From Ferroglobus placidus DSM 10642 (GTDB lineage Archaea > Halobacteriota > Archaeoglobi > Archaeoglobales > Archaeoglobaceae), in the NCBI RefSeq assembly GCF_000025505.1, contig NC_013849.1:1980001-2012000 (forward strand): a stretch of 32,000 bases of DNA, given 5' to 3'. A program made the position numbers and the translations under genes. Shown in pieces: positions 7,295-30,554 of this stretch; within the stretch, counting starts at the first letter, position 1; every line of letters begins with the position of its first letter. Under the pieces are notes generated by a model. The model ran no database searches, had not been told where the DNA came from, and saw only the letters and a list, made by a program, of their open reading frames with translations.

Positions 7295-7318
7295 ATATAA
7301 ATTTAACGGTTATTGATC
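7295..7318 (-). promoter_or_regulatory. promoter/operator cassette P2: exact 19-mer ATAACCGTTAAATTTATAT in minus orientation
   Basis: Plus-strand atataaatttaacggttat at 7295-7313 is the reverse complement of the 19-mer. The upstream flank GATCA matches the TATC[G/A] flank of the other copies. It lies about 60 nt upstream of the CoA-transferase ATG. Confidence 0.7.
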
Positions 7319-15051: not shown

Positions 15052-15918
15052 ATGGATATCAACGAAATTTGCGTAGTTGGGGCTGGGACAATGGGACATG
15101 GAATCGCTCAAGTAGCTGCGATGCATGGCTACGATGTCGTTATGGTGGATATAAAGCAAGAGATAATTGACAGCGCCTTTGAAAAGATAAAAGCAAGTTT
15201 AAATAAGTTGGCTGAAAAGGGAAAATTCGACGCAAATAAGATAGATGACGTTTTGGAGAGAATAAAGGGGACGACAAAGCTTGAAGATGCGAAGAATTCC
15301 GATTTCGTAATAGAGTCTGTTCCGGAAGTAATGGAAATTAAACAGGATGTTTTTAGAAAGCTCGATGAGATATGTCACAGAGAAGCTATTTTCACCTCCA
15401 ACACTTCGGCTTTAAGCATAACGGAGATGGCTTCAGTTACGAAGAGAAAGGACAAGTTTGCCGGAATGCACTGGTTCAATCCCCCGCAGATAATGAAGCT
15501 GATAGAAGTGATAAAAACGATAGATACTTCCGAAGAAACTCTCAACACCGTCGTAAACTTAGCAAAAGAGTTCGGAAAAGAAGTGGTGATTTGCAAGGAT
15601 TCCGTCGGCTTTATAGTTAGCAGAGCTCTTCAGGCTTTCGTTACCGAATGTATCCGAATTCTCGAAGAGGGCGTAGCTTCGGCAGAAGATATTGATAAAG
15701 CAATAAAGCTCGGATTGAACCATCCGATGGGTCCTTTTGAACTTCTTGACTTCACGAACGGAATCCCAGTGATATTTCATGCGGGAGAAGTTATGAGGAA
15801 GGTTTATGGAGAGAGATTCACTGTTCCTCAGACGGTCAGAATGCTCTACTATTCAGGCAGACATGGAAGGAAAAGCGGAAGAGGTTTTTACGACTACACC
15901 AAGGGTGAAAAGGAATGA
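15052..15918 (+). CDS. hbd: 3-hydroxyacyl-CoA (3-hydroxybutyryl-CoA) dehydrogenase
   Basis: ICVVGAGTMGHGIAQVAAMHGYDVVMVDI is an NAD Rossmann fold. HWFNPPQIMKLIEV and the C-terminal dimerisation domain are present. I prefer ATG 15052 (MDINE) after GGGGTGGTGG; the track GTG at 15040 is possible. Confidence 0.85.
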   Translation: MDINEICVVGAGTMGHGIAQVAAMHGYDVVMVDIKQEIIDSAFEKIKASLNKLAEKGKFDANKIDDVLERIKGTTKLEDAKNSDFVIESVPEVMEIKQDVFRKLDEICHREAIFTSNTSALSITEMASVTKRKDKFAGMHWFNPPQIMKLIEVIKTIDTSEETLNTVVNLAKEFGKEVVICKDSVGFIVSRALQAFVTECIRILEEGVASAEDIDKAIKLGLNHPMGPFELLDFTNGIPVIFHAGEVMRKVYGERFTVPQTVRMLYYSGRHGRKSGRGFYDYTKGEKE

Positions 15919-17081
15919 GTGATGTTGCAATAGTGGGAGCTGGGACAACCAAGTACGGAAAGCATCTTGACAAATCAGCAACCGACTTGGCGCAGCTAGC
16001 GGTAAAGGAGGCTATTGAAAGTGCCGAAAACATATCGATCGAAGACTTCGACGGCTTTGTTCTCAGCTCCCAGAATCCAGAGATCCTTCAAAAGCAGGGA
16101 AATTCGGTAAACCACTTCTCTGAATTTCTAGGGATTAAAGCGAAGTTTGCCACTCGTGTCGAAGGGGCTTGTGTAAGTGGAAGCATGGGGCTAATTACGG
16201 GCTACATGGCTGTAAAATCGGGGCTTGTAGATCTTTGCTTGGTTGTAGGTGTTGAGAAGTGTTACGAGCTCCCCTCAAGCTCAGACATAATGGCAGCTTT
16301 TTCTTACGTTATAGACAGAGACTGGGAGGCAGCCTTAGGTTCTAACGCACCGATGGGTTTTGCTATGTTTGCAACGAGACATATGAGTATTTACGGAACA
16401 AAAGAGGAACAACTTGCAATGGTAGCTGTGAAGAACAGAAAATTCGCTTCGAAAAATCCGAAAGCCCATTTTCAAAAACCTATAACGATCGAAGACGTTT
16501 TAAATTCCCGACCAATTTCCAAACCTCTCAAGCTTCTCGATTGCTGTCCAGTGAGTGATGGAGCTTCGGCGGTGATTTTAACGAGAAAAGAACTCGCTAA
16601 GAATTACACTGATACGCCAGTCTATATAAAAGGGTTCGGGCAGTATCTAATCAATGAGAATGTTATAAGCAGCATTTCAGATCTGACGGAATTTACAGCT
16701 CTGAAGATCGCTGCAAGAGAAGCATACAAACGAGCAAAAATAGAGCCGAAGGATGTAGATGTTGCAGAAGTGCACGACTGCTTTACAATAGCTGAAATCC
16801 TTGAGATAGAAGCGTTGGGTTTCTGCAATAAGGGAGAGGGTGGGAGGTTTGTAGAAGAGGGAGAGACTGACTTGGGCGGAAAAATTCCAGTAAATACTGG
16901 AGGAGGTTTGCTTTCGAGGGGACATCCAATAGGTGCAACTGGGATTTGTCAAGCGGGAATAATCTTCGAGCAGCTGAGAGGAGAGGCTCCAAAAGGAAGA
17001 GCCGTTGATGCGGAAATTGGACTAACCCAAAATCTCGGAGGATGGGGTACGAGCCAGGCAGTCATAATTTATTCGAGGTGA
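15915..17081 (+). CDS. thiolase-superfamily protein (archaeal/SCP-x-type acetyl-CoA C-acyltransferase)
   Basis: 388 aa. Motifs: the active-site Cys region VEGACVSGS, the C-terminal NTGGGLLSRGHPIGATG, and EVHDCFT. Its ATGA start overlaps the hbd stop. Confidence 0.8.
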   Translation: MSDVAIVGAGTTKYGKHLDKSATDLAQLAVKEAIESAENISIEDFDGFVLSSQNPEILQKQGNSVNHFSEFLGIKAKFATRVEGACVSGSMGLITGYMAVKSGLVDLCLVVGVEKCYELPSSSDIMAAFSYVIDRDWEAALGSNAPMGFAMFATRHMSIYGTKEEQLAMVAVKNRKFASKNPKAHFQKPITIEDVLNSRPISKPLKLLDCCPVSDGASAVILTRKELAKNYTDTPVYIKGFGQYLINENVISSISDLTEFTALKIAAREAYKRAKIEPKDVDVAEVHDCFTIAEILEIEALGFCNKGEGGRFVEEGETDLGGKIPVNTGGGLLSRGHPIGATGICQAGIIFEQLRGEAPKGRAVDAEIGLTQNLGGWGTSQAVIIYSR

Positions 17082-17085
17082 AAAA

Positions 17086-17505
17086 ATGAAAATTATGGAA
17101 GTACCTCCTCGCTATCCGAACTTTGAACAGACTGCCATAAAGAAGTTCTGGGATTCTTTAAAAGAAAAAAAGCTTCTTGCTACAAAATGCTCAGAATGCG
17201 GAAAAATAGAATTTCCTCCGAAAATCGTGTGTACCTCTTGTTACTCGGACAAGATGGAGTGGACCGAACTGCCTAAGAGGGGAAGAATCTACTCTTTTAC
17301 AGAAATGCATGTCGTACCAACGGGTTTCAAGCCTCCTTTGACGGTTGCTGTTGTGGAGCTGGAAAACGGAGTGAGGCTGTTTAGCTACGTAGTTAATGCA
17401 AGATTCGAAGAGCTGAACGTTGGAGATGAGGTCGAGATAGATTTTCAGGAGATAAACTGGTACGACTACAAAAAACATCCGTACTTCGTTTTTAGAAAAA
17501 TATGA
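17086..17505 (+). CDS. DUF35 Zn-ribbon/OB-fold protein (thiolase partner)
   Basis: 139 aa. It has the rubredoxin-like CSECGKIEFPPKIVCTSC followed by an OB-fold segment. This is the classic pairing immediately downstream of an archaeal-type thiolase. Confidence 0.8.
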   Translation: MKIMEVPPRYPNFEQTAIKKFWDSLKEKKLLATKCSECGKIEFPPKIVCTSCYSDKMEWTELPKRGRIYSFTEMHVVPTGFKPPLTVAVVELENGVRLFSYVVNARFEELNVGDEVEIDFQEINWYDYKKHPYFVFRKI

Positions 17506-17515
17506 GGTGTTCTAT

Positions 17516-17980
17516 ATGTCTCAAGCTGAGAAGGATCTAAAAGTTATGTGGAACATTTGCCGAGACTTCTTTTACAAATGGAGATCAGTTGTTGAGGAGG
17601 AATTCGGTAGAGAGAAGGCAAGAGAGCTCGTGAAAAAGTTCTGGGAAAAAGTTGGAGAGGGTACTGCAGAACTATACAAAGAGCACGGAGTAAATCCGGA
17701 AAGTCTCAGTGAGATAGCTAAAGCAATAGCGAGAAGCAGTGAAATCATGGGAGAAAGAGTGGAAATAATAGAAAAAGGAGATAGAGTTATCGTCAGACAT
17801 ACCTCATGCCCTTGGTTCGACTGGGCTAAGAGGTTCGGATTGGAGGAGGAGGATAAAGAAGGATGTGATATCTGGTTTAAAGTGACTGTAGAGAAGATGA
17901 ACCCTAGAGCAAAGGTTGAATCAACGAAATCTTTCGCAGCTGGAGACGATTTTTGTGAGAGAATAATTTATTTTAAATAA
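17516..17980 (+). CDS. small Cys-containing protein, possibly ATC-hydrolase-like/V4R-related ligand-binding fold (uncertain)
   Basis: 154 aa from ATG 17516, 6 nt after GAGGTG. Motifs: HTSCPWFDWAKRFG...EGCDIWF...AAGDDFCERIIYF. The C-terminal GDDxCE resembles the end of the V4R protein at 21955. Confidence 0.4.
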   Translation: MSQAEKDLKVMWNICRDFFYKWRSVVEEEFGREKARELVKKFWEKVGEGTAELYKEHGVNPESLSEIAKAIARSSEIMGERVEIIEKGDRVIVRHTSCPWFDWAKRFGLEEEDKEGCDIWFKVTVEKMNPRAKVESTKSFAAGDDFCERIIYFK

Positions 17981-18022: not shown

Positions 18023-18033
18023 ATAACAGTTAT
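18023..18033. promoter_or_regulatory. perfect 5-1-5 inverted repeat ATAAC-A-GTTAT, a second operator-like site about 90 bp upstream of P4
   Basis: CGATAACAGTTA shares 11 of 12 positions with CGATAACCGTTA of P1; only the central spacer base differs. Confidence 0.4.
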
Positions 18034-18116: not shown

Positions 18117-18168
18117 TATCAATAACCGTTAAATTTATATTGGTTAGATTACATGATTAATTGTGACA
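18117..18168 (+). promoter_or_regulatory. promoter/operator cassette P4: exact 19-mer (18122-18140) plus exact 18-mer ACATGATTAATTGTGACA (18151-18168)
   Basis: Both boxes are identical to P1, with a 10-nt spacer against 9 nt at P1. The SD AAGAGGTG (18175-18182) and hyuA ATG 18188 follow. Confidence 0.75.
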
Positions 18169-18187: not shown

Positions 18188-20242
18188 ATGAGAATCGGGA
18201 TCGATGTCGGTGGAACTTTTACCGACGTTGTTCTTGTAGATGATCAATCTGGAAAGCTTTACCACACGAAAACTCCAACAACGCCAAAAGATCTGACTGT
18301 CGGAGTTTTAAGAGGTATTGAAAAAATTCTTGAGATCAGTTCTGCAAAAATTGAAAATTTGAAGTATATAGTCCACGGAACGACGATAGGAACGAACGCA
18401 CTCATAGAAAGAAAAGGAGCAAAAACAGGGCTTATAACTACTGAAGGATTCATAGACGTGCTGGAGATAGGTAGATTCCAGCGGCCTAAAGAAGGACTTT
18501 ATGATATGACCGTAGACAACCCAGAACCTCTTGTTCCGAGGTATTTGAGAAAGGGTGTTAAAGAGAGAGTTAACAGCAAGGGAGAAATCGTAAGACCTCT
18601 CGACGAAAAATCGGCAAGAGAAGCTGTGGAGTTTTTAATCTCTGAAGGTGTTGAATCAATAGCAGTTTCGTTTCTGTTCTCGTTTTTGAATCCGACTCAC
18701 GAGAGAAGGGTTAGAGAGATAATAAAAGAAATTAATCCAGAGATTTACATTTCTCTTTCCTCTGATATAGCTCCAGAATTTAGGGAATACGAGAGAACAA
18801 GTACGACAGTCCTGAATGCCTACCTCCAGCCAATACTTGAAAGGTATCTTGAAGATCTTCAGAAAAAGCTTGAGAAAAAGTATGGAATAGAAGACCTAAG
18901 AATTATGCTCGTTCACGGAGGAATAATGCCGGCTGAAACCGCTAAGAAGTATGCGGTGGCAATAGTAAATTCAGGACCAGTGGGAGGAGTTGTAGCTGGA
19001 AGCTTTATTGGCAACATTCTCGGTTTTGAGAACATAATCACAGTAGACATGGGAGGGACAAGTTTTGACATTTCTTTAATTGAGAAAGGGACTCCCGTCG
19101 TTACTACGGAGGGAAAATTCGAAGGTTATCCTGTTAAAATACCCATCGTAGATGTGCATACAATTGGAGCTGGTGGAGGAAGCATAGCTTGGCTCGATAA
19201 AGCCGGAGTTCTTAATGTTGGTCCGCAAAGTGCTGGGGCAGATCCCGGACCAGCATGTTACGCAAAAGGAGGGAAAGATGCTACTGTGACTGATGCGAAC
19301 TTAGTTCTTGGAAGACTTTCTGCGGAGAACTTCCTTGGAGGAGAAATGAAGCTCGATGAGTCTCTTGCGAGAAAAGCAATCTCGAAACTTGCGAATCAGA
19401 TGGACATGAGCGTAGAAGAAGTAGCTATGGGAATAATAAGAGTAGCTGATGCGAAGATGGAAAAGGGGATAGCTACATGCTCGACTGAGAGGGGTTACGA
19501 TGTAAGAGAATTTGCTCTTGTCGCTTTCGGCGGAGCTGGACCATTGCATGCAGTTCAGATAGCCATGGATCTTAACATACCTTGGGTCATAATTCCACCA
19601 CTTCCTTCGGAATTCTCTGCTTTCGGACTTCTTGTTGCAGACATCAAGCATGACTACGTAAAAAGCTACATTGTCGAGGAGGATGAAGTAGATCTGTCTC
19701 TTCTCCAGAGTTACTTTGCTGAGCTGGAGAAAAGAGGAATTGAGCAGTTAAGAAAAGAGGGTGTAAGGGAGGAAGATATGGAAATCAAGTGGTCGATGGA
19801 CATGCGTTATTCCGGACAGAGCTACGAGTTGAACATTCCGGTTGAGAGGGGGACGAAGTTCACGAAGGAGAGTTTTGGAGAAATCATAAAGAGGTTCCAC
19901 AAAAGACACGAGGAAGTTTACACTTACAGTTCCGAGGATGAAAAGGTGGAAATCGTTAATCTAAGGGTAACTGCAATTGGAAAAGTGCCGAAAATTCAGC
20001 TTGAAAAAATCGAGAGAGGAAATAGAAATCCCCCAAGCGAGGCTTTAAAAGAAGAAAGAGAAGTTTATTTTGGAAACGGATTTTTGAGAGTACCAGTTTA
20101 CACAAGAGAGCTGATGCTTGCTGGAAATTTTGTAGAAGGACCATGTATAATCGAGGAGAGGTTCTCGACGACTGTTATTCACCCAGGCTGTAAGGCTAAG
20201 ATTGACGATTTCGGTAATATCATTGTTGAGGTGAAAGTCTGA
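18188..20242 (+). CDS. hyuA: hydantoinase A/oxoprolinase family subunit (HyuA; acetone/acetophenone carboxylase beta-type)
   Basis: 684 aa. The ASKHA ATPase start is MRIGIDVGGTFTDVVLVD, followed by the second phosphate motif VDMGGTSFDISLI. Confidence 0.85.
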   Translation: MRIGIDVGGTFTDVVLVDDQSGKLYHTKTPTTPKDLTVGVLRGIEKILEISSAKIENLKYIVHGTTIGTNALIERKGAKTGLITTEGFIDVLEIGRFQRPKEGLYDMTVDNPEPLVPRYLRKGVKERVNSKGEIVRPLDEKSAREAVEFLISEGVESIAVSFLFSFLNPTHERRVREIIKEINPEIYISLSSDIAPEFREYERTSTTVLNAYLQPILERYLEDLQKKLEKKYGIEDLRIMLVHGGIMPAETAKKYAVAIVNSGPVGGVVAGSFIGNILGFENIITVDMGGTSFDISLIEKGTPVVTTEGKFEGYPVKIPIVDVHTIGAGGGSIAWLDKAGVLNVGPQSAGADPGPACYAKGGKDATVTDANLVLGRLSAENFLGGEMKLDESLARKAISKLANQMDMSVEEVAMGIIRVADAKMEKGIATCSTERGYDVREFALVAFGGAGPLHAVQIAMDLNIPWVIIPPLPSEFSAFGLLVADIKHDYVKSYIVEEDEVDLSLLQSYFAELEKRGIEQLRKEGVREEDMEIKWSMDMRYSGQSYELNIPVERGTKFTKESFGEIIKRFHKRHEEVYTYSSEDEKVEIVNLRVTAIGKVPKIQLEKIERGNRNPPSEALKEEREVYFGNGFLRVPVYTRELMLAGNFVEGPCIIEERFSTTVIHPGCKAKIDDFGNIIVEVKV

Positions 20243-21955
20243 TGAAGGCTGATGCTATTACGATGCAGGTTATTAGATACGCTCTTGAGAGGATTGCCGA
20301 CGAAATGGGGTATACAATAGTCAGAAGTGCGAGATCAACCATAATCAAGGAAGTTATGGACATCAGTTGTGCAATTTTCAATGAGAAAGGATATACGATA
20401 GCCCAAGCTCATCACGCCCCTATGCTTCTCGCGGGTTTCGAAATCACTATGAGAGAACTCGTCAAAAGATTTCCTCCAGATTCTCTTGAGGATGGAGACG
20501 TTATAATCTCTAACGATCCTTACATGGGTGGACAGCACGTTATGGACGTTCAAACCTTCGCTCCCGTGTTCTACGAAGATGAGCTCGTGGGTTTCGTTGG
20601 AAGCATTGCACACATGACAGACATGGGAGGAGCTGTTCCGGGAGGAGTTGCTGGAGGAATGACGGACATATTCATGGAAGGTCTTAGACTTCCGATGATC
20701 AAGCTGTACAAAGGATACAAAGAAAATGAGGATGTTTTTGCGATTTTGAAAAACAACATAAGAGTTCCAGAAAAAACTCTTGGTGATATAAGAGCTCTCG
20801 TCTCTGCAGACTACGTTGGGATCAAAAAGGTTAGAGAACTCTACAAAAAATACGGTGTCGAAGTAGTTTCTGAATGCCTAAACGCTCTTCTGGATTACTC
20901 CGAAAGGAGGATTAGAGAGGGGATAGAAAAGCTTCCCGATGGAAAATACAGCGGAGAAGTTTACATCGATGATGACGGAGTTACAGATGACCCAGTCAGG
21001 ATTAAAGTAAACGTTAGGATAAAAGGAGACGAAATAAAAGTCGATTTCAACGGAACTTCGAAGCAGGTTAGGGGTAACATAAACTGTCCGATAGCAACGA
21101 CCTATGCGGCAGTTTACTACACAATCATAGCGGTTGTCGATCCTCACGTCCCGATAAACTCCGGCTGCTACAGACCGATAACAATCGAAGCCGAAGAAGG
21201 ATTAGTGGTCAACCCCCGCCCACCAGCGGCTGTTGCAGCGAGAACCAACTGCTCTCAGAAAATAACTGAAGCCATGCTCAAAGCTTTGAGCGAAGCAGCC
21301 CCTGACAGAGTTATGGCTGGCAGTCATGCCCAGATAACAACCTGCAGCTTCAGCGGTTATCAGAACGGAAAGAGGTGGATATACATCGAAATCATGGGAG
21401 GAGGAATGGGAGCTCGTTCGTTCAAAGATGGTAAAGACGGGCAGGACTCGCATCTTGCGAGGTTTATGAACACTCCGATAGAAGCTATAGAGATAGAATA
21501 TCCGGTAATGATAGAAAGGTACGAGTTCATACCCGATTCAGGGGGAGCAGGAAAATACAGAGGAGCTTTAGGCTTGAGAAGAGACATCAGGTTTTTGACG
21601 GACGAAGTAGTTTTCGCAAGGTATGGAGACAGTCAAAAGTTTCCCCCCCCACGGTCTTTTCGGAGGAAAACCCGGCATGCCAGGAAGGTTTATTCTTAAT
21701 CCGGATAAAGACAACATCCGTTTGAAATCGAAGGGGGTTGACGTTTTGAGGAAGGGGGATGTCGTTAGCTTGCAGCTTCCCGGAGGCGGAGGATACGGAA
21801 ATCCGCTTGAAAGAGACTTTTCTCTAATCGAAAGGGATGTCAGAGACGGGAAAGTTACGATAGAGGGAGCTAAGAGAGATTACAAGGTTGTAATAGATCC
21901 AAAAACCCTGAAGGTTGATGTTGAGGCTACGAAAAAGCTGAGAGGTGAAATCTAA
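20242..21955 (+). pseudogene. hyuB: hydantoinase B/oxoprolinase family subunit (HyuB), reading frame broken in a C8 tract
   Basis: ORF 20242-21699 carries the HyuB N-terminal and core regions. ORF 21623-21955, in the +1 frame, carries the conserved C-terminus (GLFGGKPGMPG...LPGGGGYGNPLERD). The frames switch at CCCCCCCC, 21643-21650. Removing one C gives the continuous sequence ...QKFPPHGLFGGKPG. Confidence 0.8.
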
Positions 21956-22446
21956 TGGAGATCAAGCTTGTAGAAGAAATCTCTCACGACAAAGAGTCTG
22001 GAGGGTGGTATTATAAAGGGATTCGCTATCTTCTCATCCGACCCGAAACGATAATTGGGATCCAGAAGAAGGTGAATGAAATTTGTGGAGAAAGTAAAGA
22101 GGCTCTTTTCTCAGGAGGATATACCGGAGGTAAGTTATCTGCCGAAAAGTTTGCGAAAGAACTTGGACTTTCAAAAGAGGAAATCCTTGCTTTCATGTGC
22201 TCCATGGGAACTCAGCTTGGCTGGGGAAAAATGGAGTGGGAACTTCGCGAAGAAAAATTCGTTGTTAGAGTTCACAACTCTCCCTTTGCCGAAGCGTACG
22301 GAAATTCAACGAAAGGAGTTTGTCATCTCATCGAAGGTGTTTTTGCCGGGGTTGGGGAGATAATTTTTGGAAAAGCAGTAAGCGAGGAAAGACTGTGCAA
22401 GGCAAAAGGAGATGATTACTGCGAAATAGTTGTTGAGAGAAGGTGA
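21955..22446 (+). CDS. V4R (4-vinyl reductase) domain small-molecule-binding protein
   Basis: 163 aa. Motifs: RYLLIRPETIIGIQ, GGYTGG, GWGKMEW, VHNSPFA, CHLIEGVFAG and a C-terminal CKAKGDDYCEIVV, matching the V4R pattern. Its TAATG start overlaps the hyuB stop. Confidence 0.7.
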   Translation: MEIKLVEEISHDKESGGWYYKGIRYLLIRPETIIGIQKKVNEICGESKEALFSGGYTGGKLSAEKFAKELGLSKEEILAFMCSMGTQLGWGKMEWELREEKFVVRVHNSPFAEAYGNSTKGVCHLIEGVFAGVGEIIFGKAVSEERLCKAKGDDYCEIVVERR

Positions 22447-22452
22447 TGTTTT

Positions 22453-23595
22453 ATGGACTTCACTTTCACCGAAGAGCAGGAGATTTTTAGAAGAACTCTT
22501 CAGGAATTCGTTGAGAAGAAAGTTAAGCCAAAAGCAAACGAAATTGAAAGGAGTGGAGAATTCCCCAAGGATCTTTTCAAAGAACTTGCAGATCTGGGCT
22601 GCTTTGGTTTGAGGTATCCAGAAGAGTACGGTGGTGCCAACGCTGACTGCGTAACCTTCTGCATCTTCTGCGAGGAAATGGCTAAAGGTTTGCTGAGTTT
22701 GGCTGCGAGCGCTACGATTCAAGCTTTCCAGAGCACTCATTTCATAGCCAAATTTGGAAGTGAAGAGTTGAAAGAGGAATACCTCGTTCCAGCCATTAAG
22801 GGAGAGAAAATAGGAGCAATCTGCATGACGGAACCAAATGCCGGCTCGGATCTCGGTAGTATTACAACGACGGCTGTAAAAGACGGAGATGAGTACGTTA
22901 TAAACGGAGTAAAAACTTGGGTGACAAACGGAAGCATAGCCGACTTTTACACTGTCGCCGCAAGAACGAGTAAAGGGAAAGGAATGGAGGGAATAGATTT
23001 CTTTTTGGTGCCAAGAAAAGCGGAAGGGGTTGAAGTGGGAAGAGAAATTGACAAAATGGGTTTGAGAGGTTTGAAGACTTCTGAAGTCGTCTTTAACGAT
23101 GTAAGAATTCCGGCTGATCACCTCCTTGGCGAGAAGGAGGGGATGGGTCACATATATTTGAGGGAGATCTTAGCTGAGATAAGAGTATCCACCGGAGCTT
23201 TAAGCCTTGGAGCCGGTTCTGCTGTGATAAAGGATGCGATAGAATACGCAAAGGAGAGAGTTCAGTTTGGAAAGCCTATAGGAAAGTTTCAGGCTGTGAG
23301 GTTGATGATTGCAGAGGCTGCAACCGAGCTCGAAGCTGCAAAATGGCTCGTTTATCATGCGGCATGGCTTATAGATAAAGGAAGGAAGCCTATTAAAGAA
23401 GCAAGCATGGCGAAGCTGTTTGCGAGTGAGGCGGCGGTTAAAGCGGTTGACATAGCTTCAAGAGTGTTCGCAAGTTACGGTTTTTCAAAAGATCACGCTG
23501 TTGAAAGATTCTACAGAGATGTTCGCTTTCTTATCATCGGAGGTGGAACTTCTGAAATTTTGAAGCTGATTATTGCTTCCGAGCTGGGGTTGTGA
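22453..23595 (+). CDS. acyl-CoA dehydrogenase family flavoprotein
   Basis: 380 aa. Motifs: MDFTFTEEQEIFR, CMTEPNAGSDLGS, and C-terminal FYRDVRFLIIGGGTSEILK. Confidence 0.85.
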   Translation: MDFTFTEEQEIFRRTLQEFVEKKVKPKANEIERSGEFPKDLFKELADLGCFGLRYPEEYGGANADCVTFCIFCEEMAKGLLSLAASATIQAFQSTHFIAKFGSEELKEEYLVPAIKGEKIGAICMTEPNAGSDLGSITTTAVKDGDEYVINGVKTWVTNGSIADFYTVAARTSKGKGMEGIDFFLVPRKAEGVEVGREIDKMGLRGLKTSEVVFNDVRIPADHLLGEKEGMGHIYLREILAEIRVSTGALSLGAGSAVIKDAIEYAKERVQFGKPIGKFQAVRLMIAEAATELEAAKWLVYHAAWLIDKGRKPIKEASMAKLFASEAAVKAVDIASRVFASYGFSKDHAVERFYRDVRFLIIGGGTSEILKLIIASELGL

Positions 23596-23605
23596 GGTGA
23601 CGATT

Positions 23606-24022
23606 ATGGCTGAGAAAAAGAGGAGACTGAGAGTCCTCATCGCAAAAACGGGATTAGACGGTCATGATAAAGCAGCGAAGATCCTCGCTTTGTATCTGAG
23701 AAATGCAGGTTACGAAGTCCTTTATACTGGATTAAGAAGAACGATAGATGAAATTGTTAAAACGGCTATAGAAGAAGATGTTGACGTTATCGGATTAAGC
23801 TTCTACTCCGGAGTCCACCTTCCAGCCACTCAGGAACTTATGCAGAAGCTGAAGGAGGCTAACGTCGAAGATATAGTCGTAGTTGTTGGGGGTGTGATTC
23901 CTAAAAAGGATGTAAAGAAGCTGAAGGAAATGGGGGTTGCGGAAGTTTTTCCGGTTGGAACGAGAATTGATCATGTTTTGGATTTCTTCAAAAAGCTTGA
24001 GGAGGAGATCTGCCATGACTAA
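23606..24022 (+). CDS. B12-binding small subunit of an acyl-CoA mutase (methylmalonyl-CoA mutase C-terminal-domain type)
   Basis: 138 aa. Motifs: RVLIAKTGLDGHDKAAKILA (His-on DxH motif), EDVDVIGLS and VVVVGGVIP. SD GAGGTGA precedes ATG 23606. Confidence 0.85.
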   Translation: MAEKKRRLRVLIAKTGLDGHDKAAKILALYLRNAGYEVLYTGLRRTIDEIVKTAIEEDVDVIGLSFYSGVHLPATQELMQKLKEANVEDIVVVVGGVIPKKDVKKLKEMGVAEVFPVGTRIDHVLDFFKKLEEEICHD

Positions 24023-25634
24023 AAAGGAAATAACTGAAAAAGATCTAAAAAAAGTTGTTTTGGAGTCAGGAATTGAGGTTAAGCCGATTTACCGTCCCGA
24101 GGATATAAAGGATATCGATTACGAGAGGGATATTGGTGATCCGGGAGAATTCCCTTATACGAGGGGGATTCACAAATTCATGTACCGCTACCGTCCTTGG
24201 ACGATGAGGCAGTATGCAGGCTTTGGCTCTCCGGAAGACTCTAATCAGAGGTTCAAGTTCCTCCTTGCACACGGACAGGACGCTTTAAACGTGGCATTCG
24301 ACTTACCAACCCAGCTTGGACTCGATTCGGATCACCCTCTGGCGAAATGGGAGGTTGGAAGAGTAGGGATGGCTGTAGATACTTTGAAAGACATGGAGAT
24401 AGCTTTTGACGGGATACCATTAGATAAAGTTAGTGTTTCTCTAACAATAAACGCTACAGCTCCGATAATTCTCTCGATGTATTTCGTTGTGGCTGAAAAG
24501 CAGGGAGTTGATTTAAAGAAGATAAGAGCAACTCCTCAGAATGACATTTTAAAGGAGTTCATTTCAAGGGGAGCTTGGATATTCCCAGTGGAACCTTCGG
24601 TAAAGCTCGTTTGTGATATAATTGAATTCTGCGCAAAGAACGCTCCGAAAGTTTATCCTGTCAGCGTTTGCGGATACCACATAAGAGAAAACGGAGCAAC
24701 TCCCGCCCAAGAAGTCGGTTATGCATTCAGCATAGCGTTAACGTACATAGACAAGGTTTTAGAGAGAGGATTGAAGGTCGATGACTTCGTTCCTCGTTTC
24801 TCTTTCAATTTTAATGTCTGGGGAAACATGTTTGAGCAAATAGCAAAACTCAGAGCAGCGAGGAGACTTTGGGCAAAGATAATTAGAGATAGGTACGGAG
24901 CCAAGAATCCCGATTCCATGAAGCTGAAAATGATCGCTGGTGGAGGGGGGAGCGGTCTTACTTATGAGCAGCCACTAAACAATATAGTTAGAGCTGCTTA
25001 CTACGCTCTCGTGGCAGCTTTAAGTGGAACACAGACGATGGCTCTTTGCACATACGACGAAGCTTATACGATTCCTTCAGCTAAAGCCTCCCTCATAGCT
25101 TTGAGAACTATGCAAATTCTAATGGAGGAAACCGGAGTTTGCGATACCGTCGATCCTCTTGGGGGATCTTACTACATAGAGTGGCTGACGAACGAGATGG
25201 AAAAGAAGATAGTGGAAGCAATGGAGGAAGTTGAGAAGTGGGGTGGGATGATAAGAGCGATAGAAAAAGGATACATTCAAGCTAAATTGGCTAAACAGTC
25301 CTATGAATATTACAGAAAAATACAAACAGGGGAAATCGTGAAGGTTGGAGTAAATAAGTACAGAATGGAGGAAGAAGAAGAGAAGGTGACCGAAATCTAC
25401 GAGTTTGATGAAAATGCTTACCAGAGACAAGTAGAGAGGTTAAAAGAAGTGAAAAACAGCAGAAACAATTTAAAGGTTAAGGAGAGCTTAGAAGAGATCA
25501 GAAAGGCTATAAAAAGGGACGAGAACCTCATGCCTTACATAATGGAAGCGGTAAGGCACTACGCAACTGTTGGAGAGATTACGCAGGTTTTGAAGGACGA
25601 GTACGGAGTGTTCAAAGAACCGTCAATTTTCTAA
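24015..25634 (+). CDS. acyl-CoA mutase large (substrate-binding TIM barrel) subunit, methylmalonyl-CoA mutase family
   Basis: 539 aa. Motifs: FPYTRGIHKFMYRYRPWTMRQYAGFGSPEDSNQRFKFLL, AFDLPTQLGLDSD and PQNDILKEFISRGAWIFP. ATG 24015 follows GGAGGAG and overlaps the small subunit by 8 nt. Confidence 0.85.
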   Translation: MTKKEITEKDLKKVVLESGIEVKPIYRPEDIKDIDYERDIGDPGEFPYTRGIHKFMYRYRPWTMRQYAGFGSPEDSNQRFKFLLAHGQDALNVAFDLPTQLGLDSDHPLAKWEVGRVGMAVDTLKDMEIAFDGIPLDKVSVSLTINATAPIILSMYFVVAEKQGVDLKKIRATPQNDILKEFISRGAWIFPVEPSVKLVCDIIEFCAKNAPKVYPVSVCGYHIRENGATPAQEVGYAFSIALTYIDKVLERGLKVDDFVPRFSFNFNVWGNMFEQIAKLRAARRLWAKIIRDRYGAKNPDSMKLKMIAGGGGSGLTYEQPLNNIVRAAYYALVAALSGTQTMALCTYDEAYTIPSAKASLIALRTMQILMEETGVCDTVDPLGGSYYIEWLTNEMEKKIVEAMEEVEKWGGMIRAIEKGYIQAKLAKQSYEYYRKIQTGEIVKVGVNKYRMEEEEEKVTEIYEFDENAYQRQVERLKEVKNSRNNLKVKESLEEIRKAIKRDENLMPYIMEAVRHYATVGEITQVLKDEYGVFKEPSIF

Positions 25635-25657
25635 AGCATGAAAGCGGAGTGTTAAAA

Positions 25658-26662
25658 ATGATAAGCAGCGAAAGGAAAATAATAGAAATTTTGAAAATTC
25701 TTTCAGAGCAAAAAGAGCCGGTAGGAGCCAAGTTTATAGCTGATCAGCTGAAAAAAAGAGGAATCTACCTGACAGAGCCTACCGTTCGCTACTACTTGAG
25801 AATTCTCGACGAAAGAGGCTTGACTAAAAACTACGGATTGCGGGGAAGAGTAATTACGGAAAAGGGTTTGAAAGAAATAGAGAAAGGGGATATAGCCGAT
25901 AGAATAGGGTACAGCATAAGCAGAGTTCACGAATGCGTTTTTTACTCTGACTTCGATGTGGAAAGTGGAGAGGGTAAGGTAGTTGCAAACTTGGCAATCT
26001 TTCCGAGAGAGTACTTGGAAGAAGTTTTGGACATGTTTTACAGGTGCTGGAAAAAAGGTTTGACATTCAGCGATAAAGTAATAGTGGATGAGAACATTCC
26101 CTTTATCGAGGAAAACGAGGTGGGATTGTACTACATTTCAAGCTTTACACTCGATGCCATTCTTTACAGAAACGGAATAGTCTCTTCACCTAGGTTTGCG
26201 GGATCCATAGAGATCTCAAACTTCAACTTCGTGAGGTTTACACAGGTCATAGGACTCGAGGAATCATCAATCACCGCTTTAGACCTCTTCATTCAGAGGA
26301 TGTACTCTGATAAGGACGAGGAGTCTATTTCCAACCTCCTTGAGAAAGGAGAAGGGGAAGTTTACGGAATGTACAGAGAAATACCGTTCGTGGCAAGAGA
26401 AAAAACGATAGAGATTCTTGAAAAATTAAAAGAGTACGGAATCTCTCCTCTTTACGTAATCGGCGAGCTGGACAAAAGCGTTTGTGGCATTCCGCCGAAG
26501 GGTGTGAACAAAGTTGGATTGGTTTGCGTGGGACCTTCAACACCCGTAGGAATCCTCAGGGCTTTGAAAGTTCCGATTAGAGTGCACATATCAAGCGAGA
26601 TTATCGAGTTTTCCAAATTTAAGAGCCTTGAGAGTTATTTAGAGGTGAAGAGTTATGAGTAA
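25658..26662 (+). CDS. NrpR-family transcriptional regulator (N-terminal winged HTH plus one DUF128/NRD-type domain)
   Basis: ERKIIEILKILSEQKEPVGAKFIADQLKKRGIYLTEPTVRYYLRILDERGLTKNYGLRGRVITEKGLKEIEKG matches my memory of the NrpR N-terminus. About 334 aa fits the short single-NRD type. I start at ATG 25658, after GGAG. Confidence 0.65.
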   Translation: MISSERKIIEILKILSEQKEPVGAKFIADQLKKRGIYLTEPTVRYYLRILDERGLTKNYGLRGRVITEKGLKEIEKGDIADRIGYSISRVHECVFYSDFDVESGEGKVVANLAIFPREYLEEVLDMFYRCWKKGLTFSDKVIVDENIPFIEENEVGLYYISSFTLDAILYRNGIVSSPRFAGSIEISNFNFVRFTQVIGLEESSITALDLFIQRMYSDKDEESISNLLEKGEGEVYGMYREIPFVAREKTIEILEKLKEYGISPLYVIGELDKSVCGIPPKGVNKVGLVCVGPSTPVGILRALKVPIRVHISSEIIEFSKFKSLESYLEVKSYE

Positions 26663-27137
26663 AAAACTCGTTTTTGATTTTACGAAATGTACTGGATGCA
26701 GAGCTTGCGAATTGGCTTGCAGCTTCGCTAACGAGGGTGTTTTTTCCCCTTCCAAGGCAAGAGTTCGGGTTGTGAAGTTTGAGTGGGATGGTGTAGACAT
26801 ACCCATAGGATGCGAACACTGCGAAGAAGCACCTTGCATGATAATCTGCCCGGTTAAAGCGATTTACAGAGATGAAGAAACGAATGCAGTTTTGCTCGAC
26901 CCAGACATTTGCATAGGCTGCAAGCAGTGCATGGTGGTATGTCCTTTCGGTGCTATAGGCTTTGACGAGGATAGAAAAGTTCTTTTCAAATGCGATCTTT
27001 GCAGGGGAGATCCCGAATGCGTGAAGTGGTGCTTCACGGGAGCGATAAGTTACGTAACTCCAAATGAGGAGACATTAGAAAAGAGGATTAAGGTTGGAAA
27101 AAAGAAGGTTGCTGCTCAATCCGTCTGGGGTGTTTAA
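26655..27137 (+). CDS. four-cluster [4Fe-4S] ferredoxin-type electron-transfer subunit (AOR partner)
   Basis: 160 aa with four Cys motifs: CTGCRACELAC, CEHCEEAPCMIICP, CIGCKQCMVVCP and CDLCRGDPECVKWC. It overlaps the regulator gene by 8 nt. Confidence 0.85.
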   Translation: MSKKLVFDFTKCTGCRACELACSFANEGVFSPSKARVRVVKFEWDGVDIPIGCEHCEEAPCMIICPVKAIYRDEETNAVLLDPDICIGCKQCMVVCPFGAIGFDEDRKVLFKCDLCRGDPECVKWCFTGAISYVTPNEETLEKRIKVGKKKVAAQSVWGV

Positions 27138-27138
27138 G

Positions 27139-29124
27139 ATGGTTGGGAAACTGTATGCCTACGCTGGTAAGACGTTGAAAGTTGATCTGACGAGGGAGAA
27201 AGTCGTTGAAGAACCTTTGAATAAAGAGCTTGCGAGAAAATTCCTCGGAGGAAGGGGTTTGAACGCTAAGCTGCTTTTCGATCTTGTCCCTCCGGATGTC
27301 CATCCCCTAAGCCCTAAAAACGTTTTGCTTATAGCTACTGGACCAATAAACGGTCTTCTTGGGGTTACAACTGGAAGAATTGACGTCACATCCCTCTCAC
27401 CGCTAACCGGAATATTTGGAAATTCCAACGCTGGAACGGATTTTGCTGCAGAACTGAAATACGCTGGTTACGATAACATAATAATCTTTGGAAGGGCAAA
27501 AAAGCCAGTTTACCTTCTTATAGAAGACGGCAGTGTGGAAATCAGAGATGCTTCAGATTTGAAAGGAGCTGGAGTATTCGAAACAACACATGTTCTTAAA
27601 GAAAGGCACGGGGACGTAAAGGTTGCTGCAATCGGACCAGCTGCAGAAAACGGAGTTCTTTACGGTTCAATCATCTTCGACTACTGGGATGCTGCCGGAA
27701 GGAGCGGTATGGGCACGGTAATGGCTTCGAAAAATTTGAAAGCTATAGCAGTAAGAGGTAGCGGATCCCTTGAAGTTGCGGACCCAGAAAGGTACTACGA
27801 AGTTGTAAGAGAAGGGTGGCTTGCACTTATGAACGATCCCGGATTTAAAACTCAAGAGCATTCGGTTCTTGGAACTGCAGTTTGCGTTGGTTGGGGTAAC
27901 GCTCAAGGATGGCTTCCTACAAGGAACTTCAGAGAATCTTATTTCGAAGAGGCAGATAAGATAAGCGGAGAAGTTTTCAGAGACAAGTATTCGGTTAAGG
28001 ATTCTCCCATCCCGGCTGGGAGAGCCTGCATGTCTTGTCCTAACAGATGCAAGCGTTATGGAGTGATAAGAAGCGGTAAGTATGCCGGAACGAGGGGGAA
28101 CATTGAATTTGAAGCTATAGCTGCTTTTGGAAGTAAGTGCGGAGTGAGCGACTTCGATGCTGTTTTCCATGCGAACATGCTTGCTAACGATTACGGAATG
28201 GATGCGGTTTCTACAGGAAACATGATTGCCACATTCATGGAACTCAGAGAAGAGGGAATTATAGATGAGAAGTTTCTGGATGGACTTGACCTCAGGTTCG
28301 GGAATGCTGATGCTATGATCGAAGCCATACACAAAATTGCTAAGAGAGAAGGAAAAATTGGAGAGCTTGGTGCCCTCGGATCTTATTTGGCTACGAAAGC
28401 CATTGGAGACAAGGCGGTCTATTACACCTCCAACATCAAAGGAATGGATTCAATAGCATGCGATCCGAGAGCAGCTAAAGGCTTTGGTTTCGCTTTTGCT
28501 GTTGCAAGCAGAGGTTCGGATCATTTAAGAGCTCATCCGGTTTTTGAAATGCTGAAATTCCCGCCAGAAGTTGGGAAGGAGCTTTTTGGTAGTCCGGAAG
28601 CAGTTGATCTGAGAAAGTACGGAGGAAAACCGGAAATGGTTGCATGGCACGAGGAGTTGGCTGCTATAACAGACTCAATCGGCTCCTGCCGCTTCATGCA
28701 CGCAAGCTACTACATTCAATATCCAGTTCCAGAACTTCTGCACAAGTACCTAAAGCTTGGAGGAAAAGCTTACTCTTTAAAGTACCACGAATGGATATCA
28801 GCCGCTACCGGTTGGGAGATTAGCTATGAGGACCTGCTGAGAATTGGAAAAAGGATCATTACCGTTGAGAGAGCGTTCAATACGAGGAGGGGCATAAGAA
28901 GAAAAGACGATACCTTGCCGGAAAGATTCTTCAAAGAGAAAATTCCAAAAGGTCCGGCTAAAGGAGAAGTTTACTCAAAAGAGGTTTTCGAAAAAATGCT
29001 CGATCGCTATTACGAGATCCGGGGATGGGATAAAGAGACCGGATTAATTAAAAGAGAGACTCTCGAATCCCTTGAGCTTCACGATGTCCTAAGTGTTCTC
29101 GAAAAAGAGGGGTTGGTGGTATAA
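27139..29124 (+). CDS. aor: tungsten-containing aldehyde:ferredoxin oxidoreductase family protein
   Basis: 661 aa. Motifs: YAGKTLKVDLT, FLGGRGL, SPLTG, AAGRSGMG, the cluster motif CMSCPNRC, and the pterin-binding SRGSDHLRA. ATG 27139 lies 1 nt after the ferredoxin stop. Confidence 0.9.
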   Translation: MVGKLYAYAGKTLKVDLTREKVVEEPLNKELARKFLGGRGLNAKLLFDLVPPDVHPLSPKNVLLIATGPINGLLGVTTGRIDVTSLSPLTGIFGNSNAGTDFAAELKYAGYDNIIIFGRAKKPVYLLIEDGSVEIRDASDLKGAGVFETTHVLKERHGDVKVAAIGPAAENGVLYGSIIFDYWDAAGRSGMGTVMASKNLKAIAVRGSGSLEVADPERYYEVVREGWLALMNDPGFKTQEHSVLGTAVCVGWGNAQGWLPTRNFRESYFEEADKISGEVFRDKYSVKDSPIPAGRACMSCPNRCKRYGVIRSGKYAGTRGNIEFEAIAAFGSKCGVSDFDAVFHANMLANDYGMDAVSTGNMIATFMELREEGIIDEKFLDGLDLRFGNADAMIEAIHKIAKREGKIGELGALGSYLATKAIGDKAVYYTSNIKGMDSIACDPRAAKGFGFAFAVASRGSDHLRAHPVFEMLKFPPEVGKELFGSPEAVDLRKYGGKPEMVAWHEELAAITDSIGSCRFMHASYYIQYPVPELLHKYLKLGGKAYSLKYHEWISAATGWEISYEDLLRIGKRIITVERAFNTRRGIRRKDDTLPERFFKEKIPKGPAKGEVYSKEVFEKMLDRYYEIRGWDKETGLIKRETLESLELHDVLSVLEKEGLVV

Positions 29125-29325
29125 ATGCCCCTTTGTAAAGCTTGTAAGAAAAGAATAGACCTCTCTCAGCCAAACGTTTACGTTAACATTTGCAGGAAGT
29201 GTGGAAAAACGTTTTGCGATCTTCACTTTGACAAATCAAAGAAGCTTTGCGCATTCTGCTTAGGAGTCAAGCCAGAGGAGATGGAAGCAAGAAAGGGTGC
29301 GAGGATAACCTTCATAAGGAGGTGA
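29125..29325 (+). CDS. 66-aa Cys-rich zinc-ribbon mini-protein with an AN1-like motif
   Basis: CKACKK-x15-CRKCGKTFCDLH-x7-CAFC. The start abuts the AOR stop, and its stop overlaps the next start (TGATG). Confidence 0.55.
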   Translation: MPLCKACKKRIDLSQPNVYVNICRKCGKTFCDLHFDKSKKLCAFCLGVKPEEMEARKGARITFIRR

Positions 29326-29621
29326 TGATCAAGTTGATCGTTTTTGTGAAATATCTCGGATATTTTTCCCAAATCATCGGAAAAAGGGAAGAAAAAGTTT
29401 CGTTAGATAAAGGGGCGACGGTAGAAGTTTTGCTCCAAAATCTCGCTAAAAAATACGGTAGGAAGTTTGAAGAAGCTGTAGCTTCAAGAGCGTTTAGAAG
29501 TGCGGTAATTCTCGTCAATGGAGAGCAAGCGGATATGAAGAGAAAGCTAAATCATGGGGATAATGTTGTCATTTCTTTTCCGATGGGTGGGGGATCGCTT
29601 AGGGTCTGCCCCCGAAATTAA
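29325..29621 (+). CDS. MoaD/ThiS-family ubiquitin-like beta-grasp protein with a C-terminal tail after the GG motif
   Basis: 98 aa from ATG 29325, after AGGAGGTGA. MIKLIVFVKYLGYFSQIIGKREEKVSLDKGATV...HGDNVVISFPMGGG, then SLRVCPRN before the stop. Confidence 0.7.
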   Translation: MIKLIVFVKYLGYFSQIIGKREEKVSLDKGATVEVLLQNLAKKYGRKFEEAVASRAFRSAVILVNGEQADMKRKLNHGDNVVISFPMGGGSLRVCPRN

Positions 29622-29849: not shown

Positions 29850-30554
29850 ATGCTGGGTAAGATGAGCAAACAGACGGCTAAGGATTACGTCAGCGCAATT
29901 TCACGTTTTCTCGAAGACGAGATAAGAACGCCGAAGGATCTCGAAAACGCAATCCTGAAATCGCAAGGAGACAAGTTCGCAAAGGGAATAAGGAGATTCT
30001 TCAACTTCCTCGAAGATGAGGAGGTGGACGAACTCCTCGGCTTCCCCTTAGACAAGTGGAAGAAGAAAGCCCACATCAAGAAATACGACCCGAGGGAGGT
30101 TTTCATCAGCGACGAAGAACTCATCGAAGCCTATAACGAAGTTGCCGAGAAGTTCCCCGAACTCGAAACCATCCTTAAGCTGATGGTCTTCTCGGGAGTG
30201 AGGCTGAAATAGATTCTCGAAGCGCTCGAAACTTTCGACTCAGAGAACGTGGTAAAAGTGAACGGAAAGGTCGCAAGATACCCCATCGCTTCAGCGTCCA
30301 AAGGGAAGAAGAAAGCCTTTTGGATGCACTTCCCGGCAGAACTCGAAATTAAACCGATGAACGTAAGTTACCACGTTGCAAGGGAAAAGCTGAACCTCGG
30401 AAGAGTTTCGGCTAACTCGATCAGGAAGTGGAACTACAACTTTTTGATCTTGAATGAAGTTCCCGAAAGCGTTGCCGACTTCATTCAGGGAAGGGCGTCG
30501 GTAACCGTCGGAAGCTCCCACTACTTAGAAAAAACGAGACAAGCCATAGAATGA
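29850..30554 (+). pseudogene. tyrosine recombinase/integrase interrupted by one in-frame TAG (30210-30212)
   Basis: ORFs 29850-30212 and 30249-30554 are in the same frame, with open codons between them. Box I is SGVRLK*ILEAL. The later catalytic elements are SIRKWNYNF and GRASVTVGSSHY. Confidence 0.7.

Follow-up and report, generated by a model that had tools for sequence, protein, structure and literature searches.

The anaerobic degradation of indole-3-acetate (IAA), a plant hormone formed from tryptophan, passes through (2-aminophenyl)succinyl-CoA and (2-aminobenzyl)malonyl-CoA, and one of its enzymes, IaaF of Aromatoleum aromaticum, is a decarboxylating benzylmalonyl-CoA dehydrogenase (Schuhle et al. 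2021, PMC8360864). Biochemical proof within this iaa pathway is confined to three Aromatoleum enzymes, IaaB, IaaL and IaaF (PMC8360864); IaaCE has been described as a hydantoinase-like enzyme that hydrolyses 2-oxo-IAA (PMC8453981). Throughout the IaaF branch GGG takes the place of the YEG active-site motif and the operons of all members contain other iaa genes, and the predicted iaa operons of strict anaerobes include that of the archaeon Ferroglobus placidus, with an iaaF orthologue (WP_012966786) and a paralogue of the electron-transferring flavoprotein (ETF) (PMC8360864). Here we examine a stretch of 32,000 nucleotides of the F. placidus DSM 10642 genome (NC_013849.1, positions 1,980,001 to 2,012,000), hereafter called the window, and in particular an operon of 11 genes located at 18188-29621 on the plus strand.

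This operon is, with high confidence, best explained as the central operon of anaerobic IAA degradation in F. placidus, equivalent to the iaa cluster of Aromatoleum/Azoarcus, extended by an aldehyde oxidoreductase (AOR) module specific to Archaeoglobi. F. placidus is said to grow on tryptophan, with these genes responding. The pathway is a known one, and not new: the initial annotation, made from the sequence alone, had not recognised the gene combination as a described pathway, yet the iaa pathway had already been predicted for F. placidus (PMC8360864). Full-text literature searches gave no match joining Ferroglobus with hydantoinase, nor indoleacetate with hydantoinase, mutase and anaerobic. 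The 11 genes are those initially listed, and Pfam supports every domain call made for them; the features of the operon and of its promoter region are the following.

18023-18033, plus strand: perfect palindrome ATAACAGTTAT; the promoter box follows about 100 nt downstream
18123-18139, plus strand: promoter box TAACCGTTAAATTTATA, upstream of HyuA, resembling a transcription factor B recognition element (BRE) with TATA box; exact copies precede three other units of the window
18188-20242, plus strand: HyuA (Pfam Hydant_A_N, Hydantoinase_A, Hydant_A_C)
20242-21955, plus strand: HyuB, split by a +1 frameshift
21643-21650, plus strand: run of eight C with one extra C, the cause of the HyuB frameshift
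21955-22446, plus strand: V4R protein (Pfam V4R, 7e-14)
22453-23595, plus strand: acyl-CoA dehydrogenase (ACAD) of the IaaF type (Pfam ACAD domains)
23606-24022, plus strand: B12-binding small mutase subunit (Pfam B12-binding, NCBIfam acid_CoA_mut_C)
24015-25634, plus strand: mutase large subunit, IaaGH-like (Pfam MM_CoA_mutase)
25658-26662, plus strand: NrpR-family paralogue (Pfam HTH_12, 6e-22; NrpR NRD, 7e-66), alternative GTG start at 25649
26655-27137, plus strand: small electron-transfer Fe-S subunit, AorA/WorS-like, with four predicted [4Fe-4S] clusters (Pfam matches to Fer4_11 and related families)
27139-29124, plus strand: tungsten AOR large subunit, AOR/WorL (Pfam AFOR_N, AFOR_C)
29125-29325, plus strand: 66-aa Cys-rich protein, known by translation, without a Pfam match
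29325-29621, plus strand: ThiS/MoaD-like protein (Pfam ThiS)

The genes follow each other closely. One-nucleotide overlaps join HyuA to HyuB (TGATG at 20242), HyuB to the V4R gene (TAATG at 21955) and the 66-aa ORF to the ThiS-like gene (TGATG at 29325); 8-nt overlaps are found between the mutase subunits (at 24015) and between the NrpR and Fe-S genes (at 26655), while the end of the AOR gene and the start of the 66-aa ORF, at 29125, abut. Gaps of 6, 10 and 1 nt precede the ACAD, small mutase subunit and AOR genes, respectively, and 23 nt precede the ATG of NrpR at 25658. Overlaps and gaps are thus as initially annotated, except that the ATGA string, which does start at 20242, is not a classic 4-nt ATGA overlap. 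A GGTG/GAGG motif of the Shine-Dalgarno type precedes every gene of the operon, and between 18000 and 29700 only one consensus TATA-like box is found on the plus strand, at 18134. Because of this single box, of the ribosome-binding motif at each gene and of junctions consisting of overlaps or gaps of at most 23 nt, the region looks like one tightly coupled, co-directional polycistronic unit, in agreement with the earlier proposal of a single operon.

The assignment to the iaa pathway starts from the ACAD, whose C-terminal motif RFLIIGGGTSEILK (LIIGGGTSEI) features GGG in the place of YEG, and which lacks the catalytic Glu of that motif. The same GGG is present in 112 of the 120 closest homologues, and the protein is predicted to be an (2-aminobenzyl)malonyl-CoA oxidative decarboxylase of the IaaF type. 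Adjoining it is a two-subunit B12 mutase (23606-25634), which shares its fold and its split into large and small subunits with methylmalonyl-CoA mutase (MCM) and 2-hydroxyisobutyryl-CoA mutase (HCM). The window mutase keeps the motifs RQYAGF and ISRGAWIF, aligned with the carboxylate-binding Tyr89 and Arg207 of MCM; in contrast, the loop IAGGGGSG, a signature found in 117 of 120 homologues, stands where MCM has HCQTSGW. Throughout the subfamily the loop reads IAGGGG(G/S)G, as opposed to HCQTSGW in MCM and HCQTAAA in HCM; in its wider context, MIAGGGG(G/S)GLT corresponds to HCQTSGWSLT of MCM. A Gly-rich loop combined with the retained Tyr and Arg is a possible signature of arylsuccinyl-CoA mutases, and these features would fit a substrate of the succinyl-CoA type carrying a bulky substituent. 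The protein is accordingly classed, by similarity, as a putative coenzyme-B12 acyl-CoA mutase, IaaGH-like (arylsuccinyl-CoA/benzylmalonyl-CoA), belonging to a distinct subfamily. Its identification as MCM was rejected, because the score against the NCBIfam MCM equivalog (542 bits) is below the cut-off of 876 and the canonical HCQTSGW loop is replaced; a gene for a chaperone of the MeaB type, moreover, is not found adjacent to it.

A profile scan with an IaaF alignment, run over 185,579 species genomes, returned 476 relatives, the best 80 of which were used for all locus comparisons; neither F. placidus nor Aromatoleum is among these 80 loci. The nearest relatives in the scan are a Ferroglobus sp., Archaeoglobus sp. 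JdFR-27 and Archaeoglobi JdFR-42. Five other lineages of Archaeoglobi maintain the order HyuA, HyuB, V4R, IaaF, small and large mutase subunits, (CoA-transferase), NrpR, Fe-S subunit, AOR, 66-aa protein and ThiS, so that the conservation proposed earlier as a check is indeed observed; in relatives L007 and L009 the bracketed gene, a homologue of the CoA-transferase family, separates NrpR from the mutase genes. The core, made of IaaF and mutase, usually with a family III CoA-transferase and HyuAB and often with V4R, is also found in Thermoplasmata/Methanomassiliicoccales, Chloroflexi/Anaerolineae, Acidobacteria, Rokubacteria and others, and a pathway of the iaa type is common among uncultured members of the Thermoplasmata, Chloroflexi, Acidobacteria and Rokubacteria. 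The NrpR paralogue, the Fe-S/AOR pair, the 66-aa protein and the MoaD-like gene, on the other hand, are restricted to the Archaeoglobi clusters. One Blastocatellia locus features, along with the core, an aminotransferase, an indolepyruvate:ferredoxin oxidoreductase, a PaaK-like ligase and a hydroxylase of the xanthine dehydrogenase (XDH) type, which would make up a coherent entry set from tryptophan and IAA.

Public annotations describe the mutase as methylmalonyl-CoA mutase and the ACAD as a butyryl-CoA or AidB-like dehydrogenase, and one could accordingly see in these genes ordinary paralogues of propionate and amino-acid catabolism (MCM, a short-chain ACAD and 5-oxoprolinase) which are neighbours by chance. 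This seems extremely improbable: none of the NCBIfam equivalog cut-offs is reached, as seen above for MCM; the ACAD does not have the catalytic Glu and the mutase loop is specific to its subfamily; the gene order is conserved across phyla; and MeaB, epimerase and propionyl-CoA carboxylase were not recognised among the window genes scanned. Generic labels, such as those mentioned or hydantoinase/oxoprolinase, rather mask a specific iaa pathway.

HyuA and HyuB lie directly upstream, as a two-subunit hydantoinase-like enzyme within the cluster. Among PDB chains, HyuA is most similar to N-methylhydantoinase (511 bits) and caprolactamase (487), as compared to 366 bits for acetophenone carboxylase and 328 for acetone carboxylase; NCBIfam gives the same ranking, with 684 bits for the caprolactamase alpha model versus 386 for acetophenone carboxylase (ApcC), the cut-off of which is 1500. 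Pfam and NCBIfam scans detected no gene for a carboxylase gamma subunit in the operon. An acetone or acetophenone carboxylase was therefore rejected, since hydrolases outrank carboxylases in both comparisons and the gamma subunit is missing; the initial annotation, which had favoured an enzyme of the ketone-carboxylase type, is superseded by one of the hydrolase/lactamase type. HyuA is, judging from these similarities, the predicted IaaC-like large subunit of a lactam hydrolase dependent on ATP, and HyuB its IaaE-like small subunit. Caprolactamase CapAB and N-methylhydantoinase, the best PDB and NCBIfam matches, share the same two-subunit HyuA/HyuB architecture but differ in substrate class: HyuAB scores 684 and 299 bits against the caprolactamase-type models, both under the equivalog cut-off of 1000, and the substrate predicted here is the oxindole lactam of 2-oxo-IAA or of its CoA ester. 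An ATP-dependent lactam hydrolase would fit the opening of such a ring.

The nature of HyuAB bears on the substrate of the whole pathway. The specificity of the archaeal enzymes is deduced from homology, V4R is a general sensor fold for aromatic and hydrophobic ligands and Aromatoleum IaaF also takes some medium-chain alkylmalonyl-CoAs (PMC8360864); a different aryl- or alkyl-succinate or lactam, such as a hydrocarbon or ketone intermediate, might thus be processed in place of indoleacetate. We regard this as very unlikely. Ketones and hydrocarbon-derived substrates fit poorly because HyuAB is of the hydrolase type and lacks the carboxylase gamma subunit; a glycyl-radical fumarate-adding enzyme is absent from the window; the homologous bacterial cluster carries an aminotransferase and an indolepyruvate oxidoreductase; and the literature places the IaaF branch in iaa clusters (PMC8360864). 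Of the route sketched initially, for ketones or for alkyl- or aryl-substituted dicarboxyl-CoA esters, the part that survives is that of aryl-substituted dicarboxyl-CoA esters requiring activation, rearrangement and beta-oxidation, which indeed matches the iaa pathway, whereas a ketone or hydrocarbon route is not likely.

The initial annotation had not noticed that HyuB is broken by a frameshift. Frame 0 ends in a stop codon at 21699, and the C-terminal 100 residues, a conserved portion, are read in frame +1 up to 21955, with positions 1-464 and 461-519 of the Pfam Hydantoinase_B profile falling on two separate ORFs. Removal of one C from the run at 21643-21650 results in a protein of 570 aa, which shares 97.7% identity with its orthologue, an intact protein, from a Ferroglobus metagenome-assembled genome (L003), and either a +1 slip or the loss of a single C would restore exactly the orthologous FPPHGLFGG. 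Two other assemblies of F. placidus carry this frameshift too, and it is absent from all relatives, in which HyuB is intact and 570-574 aa long. Downstream of the shift 29 synonymous and 5 non-synonymous codon differences separate the gene from that of the Ferroglobus assembly, with no further defects; because this portion of the frame shows no other damage, a recent plain mutation is what the comparison points to. Programmed frameshifting or transcriptional slippage at the C run was considered and is disfavoured, because the closest relative (96-98% identical) does not share the run: its codons TTC CCT CCC CAC interrupt it, and its gene is intact.

Other genes required by an iaa pathway lie to the left of the operon in the window, as separate units.

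4741-6057, plus strand: PaaK-type aryl-acetate CoA ligase, IaaB-like (Pfam AMP-binding, AMP-binding_C_2), with its own promoter box at 4667-4683
6061-7236, minus strand: family III CoA-transferase, IaaL-like (Pfam CoA_transf_3), with promoter box at 7296-7312 and Shine-Dalgarno motif
9244-10158, minus strand: ETF alpha (Pfam), beside a variant box
10155-10913, minus strand: ETF beta (Pfam), beside the same variant box
15052-17980, plus strand: beta-oxidation unit comprising 3-hydroxyacyl-CoA dehydrogenase, thiolase, DUF35/ChsH2-type and ATC_hydrolase-family proteins (Pfam), with box at 14968-14984

Counterparts of IaaB, IaaCE, IaaF, IaaGH and IaaL are therefore all contained in the window, the CoA-transferase of the IaaL type and the ligase of the IaaB type being recognised, by sequence, at the family level and under the same promoter box as the operon. 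The ligase scores 475-484 bits against the NCBIfam PaaK models, below their cut-offs of 646 and 700. The longest ORF of the CoA-transferase reaches 7278, its start being probably the ATG at 7236. The ETF pair is the likely electron acceptor of the IaaF-type dehydrogenase. The ATC_hydrolase-family (PF14196) protein which ends the beta-oxidation unit (17507-17980) has homologues, 33-36% identical, near distant clusters of the IaaF type (L005, L021, L037, L045, L086).

In the five Archaeoglobi relatives an ADP-forming CoA synthetase comes next after ThiS, the two being fused in some of them, and then a PaaK-like, IaaB-like ligase gene, which thus comes after the AOR module. In the window, an archaeal phage-type integrase, split in two ORFs (29850-30212 and 30249-30554), lies directly after the operon. 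Because the integrase occupies the site where relatives carry the CoA synthetase and the ligase, the ligase is suggested to have come to its site at 4741-6057, behind a duplicated promoter, through a past insertion or rearrangement.

On the basis of homology, the route would comprise seven steps. After uptake of IAA, the PaaK-like ligase (4741-6057) would convert it to IAA-CoA, and the pyrrole ring would be oxidised to the 2-oxo (lactam) form, a step to which no window gene is assigned. HyuAB (IaaCE-like) would then open the lactam at the expense of ATP, producing (2-aminophenyl)succinyl-CoA, and the family III CoA-transferase (6061-7236) would move CoA between the two carboxyl groups. The B12 mutase (23606-25634) would produce (2-aminobenzyl)malonyl-CoA by skeleton rearrangement, and the GGG-motif dehydrogenase (22453-23595) would oxidise and decarboxylate it to 2-aminocinnamoyl-CoA, passing electrons to the nearby ETF. 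Finally, the unit containing Hbd, thiolase and DUF35 would complete beta-oxidation to 2-aminobenzoyl-CoA and acetyl-CoA. The distal half of the operon, consisting of the NrpR, Fe-S, AOR, Cys-rich and MoaD-like genes, would be an add-on, in which an AOR is accompanied by a maturation factor and by a pathway regulator.

Compared with the iaaABCDEFGHIJKLMPQR cluster of A. aromaticum EbN1 and A. evansii, the parts in common are the IaaCE, IaaF, IaaGH, IaaL and IaaB types and the beta-oxidation genes. The archaeal cluster, however, adds the ETF pair, a stand-alone V4R protein and a tungsten AOR module lying within the operon; it features a regulator of the NrpR family instead of iaaQ and iaaR, is spread over at least 5 units sharing a promoter box, and contains no molybdenum hydroxylase of the XDH type, and in the type strain a frameshift splits its iaaE-like gene.

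As to the AOR itself, the nearest solved structures are 9mqx_D, 1aor (from P. furiosus) and 8c0z_A (AorB of Aromatoleum), far ahead of BamB, WOR5 and FOR, and the nearest solved chain for the Fe-S subunit is 8c0z_C, AorA of Aromatoleum (3.6e-40). A BamB-type benzoyl-CoA reductase, WOR5 or FOR identity was rejected on this similarity ranking. The AOR keeps Thr243, Glu313, His448 (numbering of the P. furiosus enzyme) and the cluster cysteines; Tyr427, a conserved residue of aldehyde-oxidising AORs, is instead replaced by Cys in all of the six cluster AORs examined (the window, L003, L005, L007, L009 and L013). At 28432-28536 (residues ~432-466) the motif SIACDPR is found and RGSDHLRAH replaces RGGCHIKNY, both features being shared by the five Archaeoglobi relatives.

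Tungsten oxidoreductases (WOR) of Class II are formed by WorL and a WorS subunit harbouring four [4Fe-4S] clusters and are ferredoxin-linked (PMC13328260, a 2026 classification); the window pair, an AFOR_N/AFOR_C protein adjoining a four-cluster subunit, features this composition. AorABC of A. aromaticum and Class II WorLS likewise combine a tungsten-pterin subunit with a four-cluster one, in the gene order S then L, and in the AorABC system too MoaD-like genes are found downstream. The window module differs in having no FAD/NAD subunit (AorC/WorN), in the Cys at the place of Tyr427, in the additional 66-aa Cys-rich protein and in its location inside a catabolic operon, where a regulator gene precedes it. 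Because the FAD/NAD subunit is lacking, the enzyme is probably ferredoxin-linked (Class II). The aorD and aorE products of Aromatoleum are MoaD-like (PMC6365974), and by analogy the ThiS/MoaD-like protein is a probable maturation factor of the pterin cofactor. The 66-aa protein contains eight Cys and one His (CKAC...CRKCGKTFCDLH...CAFC), is conserved directly after the AOR gene in Archaeoglobi (75-90% identical in relatives) and looks, by inspection, like a zinc finger. Most likely, the module would provide the acid used by the ligase, through oxidation of indole-3-acetaldehyde or of other arylacetaldehydes, a role from aldehyde to acid to CoA ester being proposed because AOR, CoA synthetase and ligase follow each other in this order in relatives. 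A second Fe-S/AOR pair, with Ile at the position of Tyr427, is found in the Archaeoglobus sp. JdFR-27-like locus L005 (1210-3528, minus strand), just upstream of the operon of the iaa type.

Some observations weigh against the assignment of the cluster to IAA degradation. The ring-oxidising dehydrogenase of the iaa pathway reportedly belongs to the xanthine-oxidase family. A dehydrogenase of this family is not encoded in the window, although it may be encoded elsewhere in the genome; a tblastn search for the XDH-type molybdenum hydroxylase was negative in the window and in all archaeal loci, and none of the genes in the window or in the archaeal loci compared accounts for the ring-oxidising step. 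An enoyl-CoA hydratase was not recognised among the window genes. The frameshift in HyuB may block the pathway at ring opening in the sequenced culture, and the substitution of Tyr427 by Cys in the AOR is compatible with a possible non-standard substrate. The link to the Aromatoleum Iaa proteins, finally, relies on a published statement, on the GGG motif and on gene context.

The first of these points raises the possibility that the AOR module itself is the missing ring hydroxylase, converting IAA or IAA-CoA to the 2-oxo form in place of the bacterial XDH-type enzyme, with the diverged NrpR paralogue regulating the pathway. The distribution of the two enzymes is complementary: in about 31 bacterial loci tblastn with the L033 subunits found XDH-type genes for three subunits, located immediately upstream of IaaF, and it found them in none of the archaeal loci, and the Fe-S/AOR pair is present in every Archaeoglobi cluster and nowhere else; the Cys at position 427 recurs in all six AORs and the window offers no other candidate for the oxidation step. 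Against it, the enzymes most closely related to the AOR are genuine aldehyde oxidoreductases, whose Thr243, Glu313 and His448 are retained, and the CoA-activating enzymes following the AOR in relatives suit an aldehyde to acid to CoA sequence. Thermoplasmata clusters, furthermore, have neither XDH-type nor AOR genes within 10 kb, so that absence of the one is no proof of replacement by the other, and the sole non-aldehyde activity noted in the AOR family is the reduction of benzoyl-CoA (PMC13328260, a 2026 review). Such a role appears distinctly unlikely; if true, it would make this the first enzyme of the AOR family known to hydroxylate an N-heteroaromatic ring.

Returning to an aldehyde-oxidising module added to an iaa operon, the gene at its head encodes an NrpR-family protein composed of a winged-helix HTH_12 domain and one NRD region, the short form of the NrpR architecture. 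Orthologues, 65-97% identical, are found in Archaeoglobi clusters only; the next relatives are 35-39% identical, and both of those examined adjoin glutamate synthase genes. With NrpR of methanogens the window paralogue shares the domains, but its identity to family members other than the cluster orthologues does not exceed 39%, and it is located within an operon for aromatic catabolism and not in a nitrogen context. The canonical operator of NrpR in methanogens is GGAA-N6-TTCC. This pattern gives 27 matches, against 22 expected, with no occurrence at the operon promoter, and was rejected as the control element of the operon, being neither enriched nor present at its promoter. The paralogue is probably a repurposed regulator of the pathway, as its sequence divergence and gene context suggest. 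A perfect GGAA-N6-TTCC palindrome is found at 14922-14935, in the 3' end of the gene for a 406-aa protein (13733-14953), with the next promoter box about 35 nt downstream.

The confinement of the NrpR-to-ThiS block to Archaeoglobi, as opposed to a widespread core, also raises the question of whether two abutting units are present, the iaa core from HyuA to the mutase and a separately regulated NrpR-AOR module, served by a weak promoter inside the 3' end of the mutase gene. A copy of the promoter box with 3 mismatches indeed lies at 25618-25633, just 5' of NrpR, and in relatives the CoA-transferase gene parts the two blocks, with gaps of about 100-190 nt before NrpR in L005 and L007. In L009, however, this gap is of 12 nt, and in the window it measures only 23 nt, holds a Shine-Dalgarno-like motif and is devoid of a consensus TATA-like box; two T6 runs are found on the plus strand, both within coding regions of the distal block (the NrpR and Fe-S genes), and none at the block boundary. 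Two separate units are thus rather doubtful, and a single operon is the arrangement retained here.

The V4R protein, of 163 aa, is a stand-alone domain with a Cys/Glu/Cys/Cys motif and a fold like that of aromatic-ligand sensors. It aligns weakly, over the full length, with the phenol-sensor domain of MopR (E = 4e-4), with matches at the four zinc-ligand positions (Cys, Glu, Cys, Cys); unlike the MopR/DmpR/XylR phenol regulators, which combine XylR_N and V4R, it has no AAA+ or DNA-binding domain. Its gene accompanies the iaa core also in Thermoplasmata and bacteria. The protein is a conserved accessory, possibly involved in the sensing or delivery of a ligand.

The box TAACCGTTAAATTTATA is found in four identical copies, at 4667-4683 (plus), 7296-7312 (minus), 14968-14984 (plus) and 18123-18139 (plus). 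The 16-mer AACCGTTAAATTTATA occurs exactly four times in the window, at 4668 (plus), 7296 (minus), 14969 (plus) and 18124 (plus), in each case upstream of a gene start, the number of matches with up to 3 mismatches expected by chance being about 0.44. A variant, TTACCGATAGTTTTAAATATA, lies between the ETF genes and a gene of the old yellow enzyme (OYE) type, at about 10930-10955. The promoter box that had been noticed on further units is, therefore, real. In relatives L005 and L007 a box of related sequence, ATTACCGATAAATTTATA, lies ahead of HyuA and of the CoA-transferase gene, and the sequence ACATGATTAATTGTGAC, downstream of the box, is common to the ligase and HyuA units. Within TAACCGTTAAATTTATA the core TAAC-N-GTTA forms an inverted repeat directly upstream of the TATA-like part, where it would occupy the position of a BRE. 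The palindrome ATAACAGTTAT has 4 matches against 0.79 expected and is a possible regulator site; together with the TAAC-N-GTTA element, the copy at 18023-18033 is put forward as a putative operator of the NrpR paralogue, both being candidates only.

The OYE-type gene (10928-12943), divergent from the ETF genes, encodes a flavoprotein of 671 aa similar to 2,4-dienoyl-CoA reductases; relatives L009 and L012 have homologues of it, 74-85% identical, close to the cluster. The 406-aa protein (13733-14953) carries a C-terminal double [4Fe-4S] domain (Fer4_16), its N-terminal 290 residues having no family match. On the left, the cluster is flanked by unrelated genes for subunits of an A-type/V-type ATPase (E, I and H/G-like), at 868-3969 on the minus strand.

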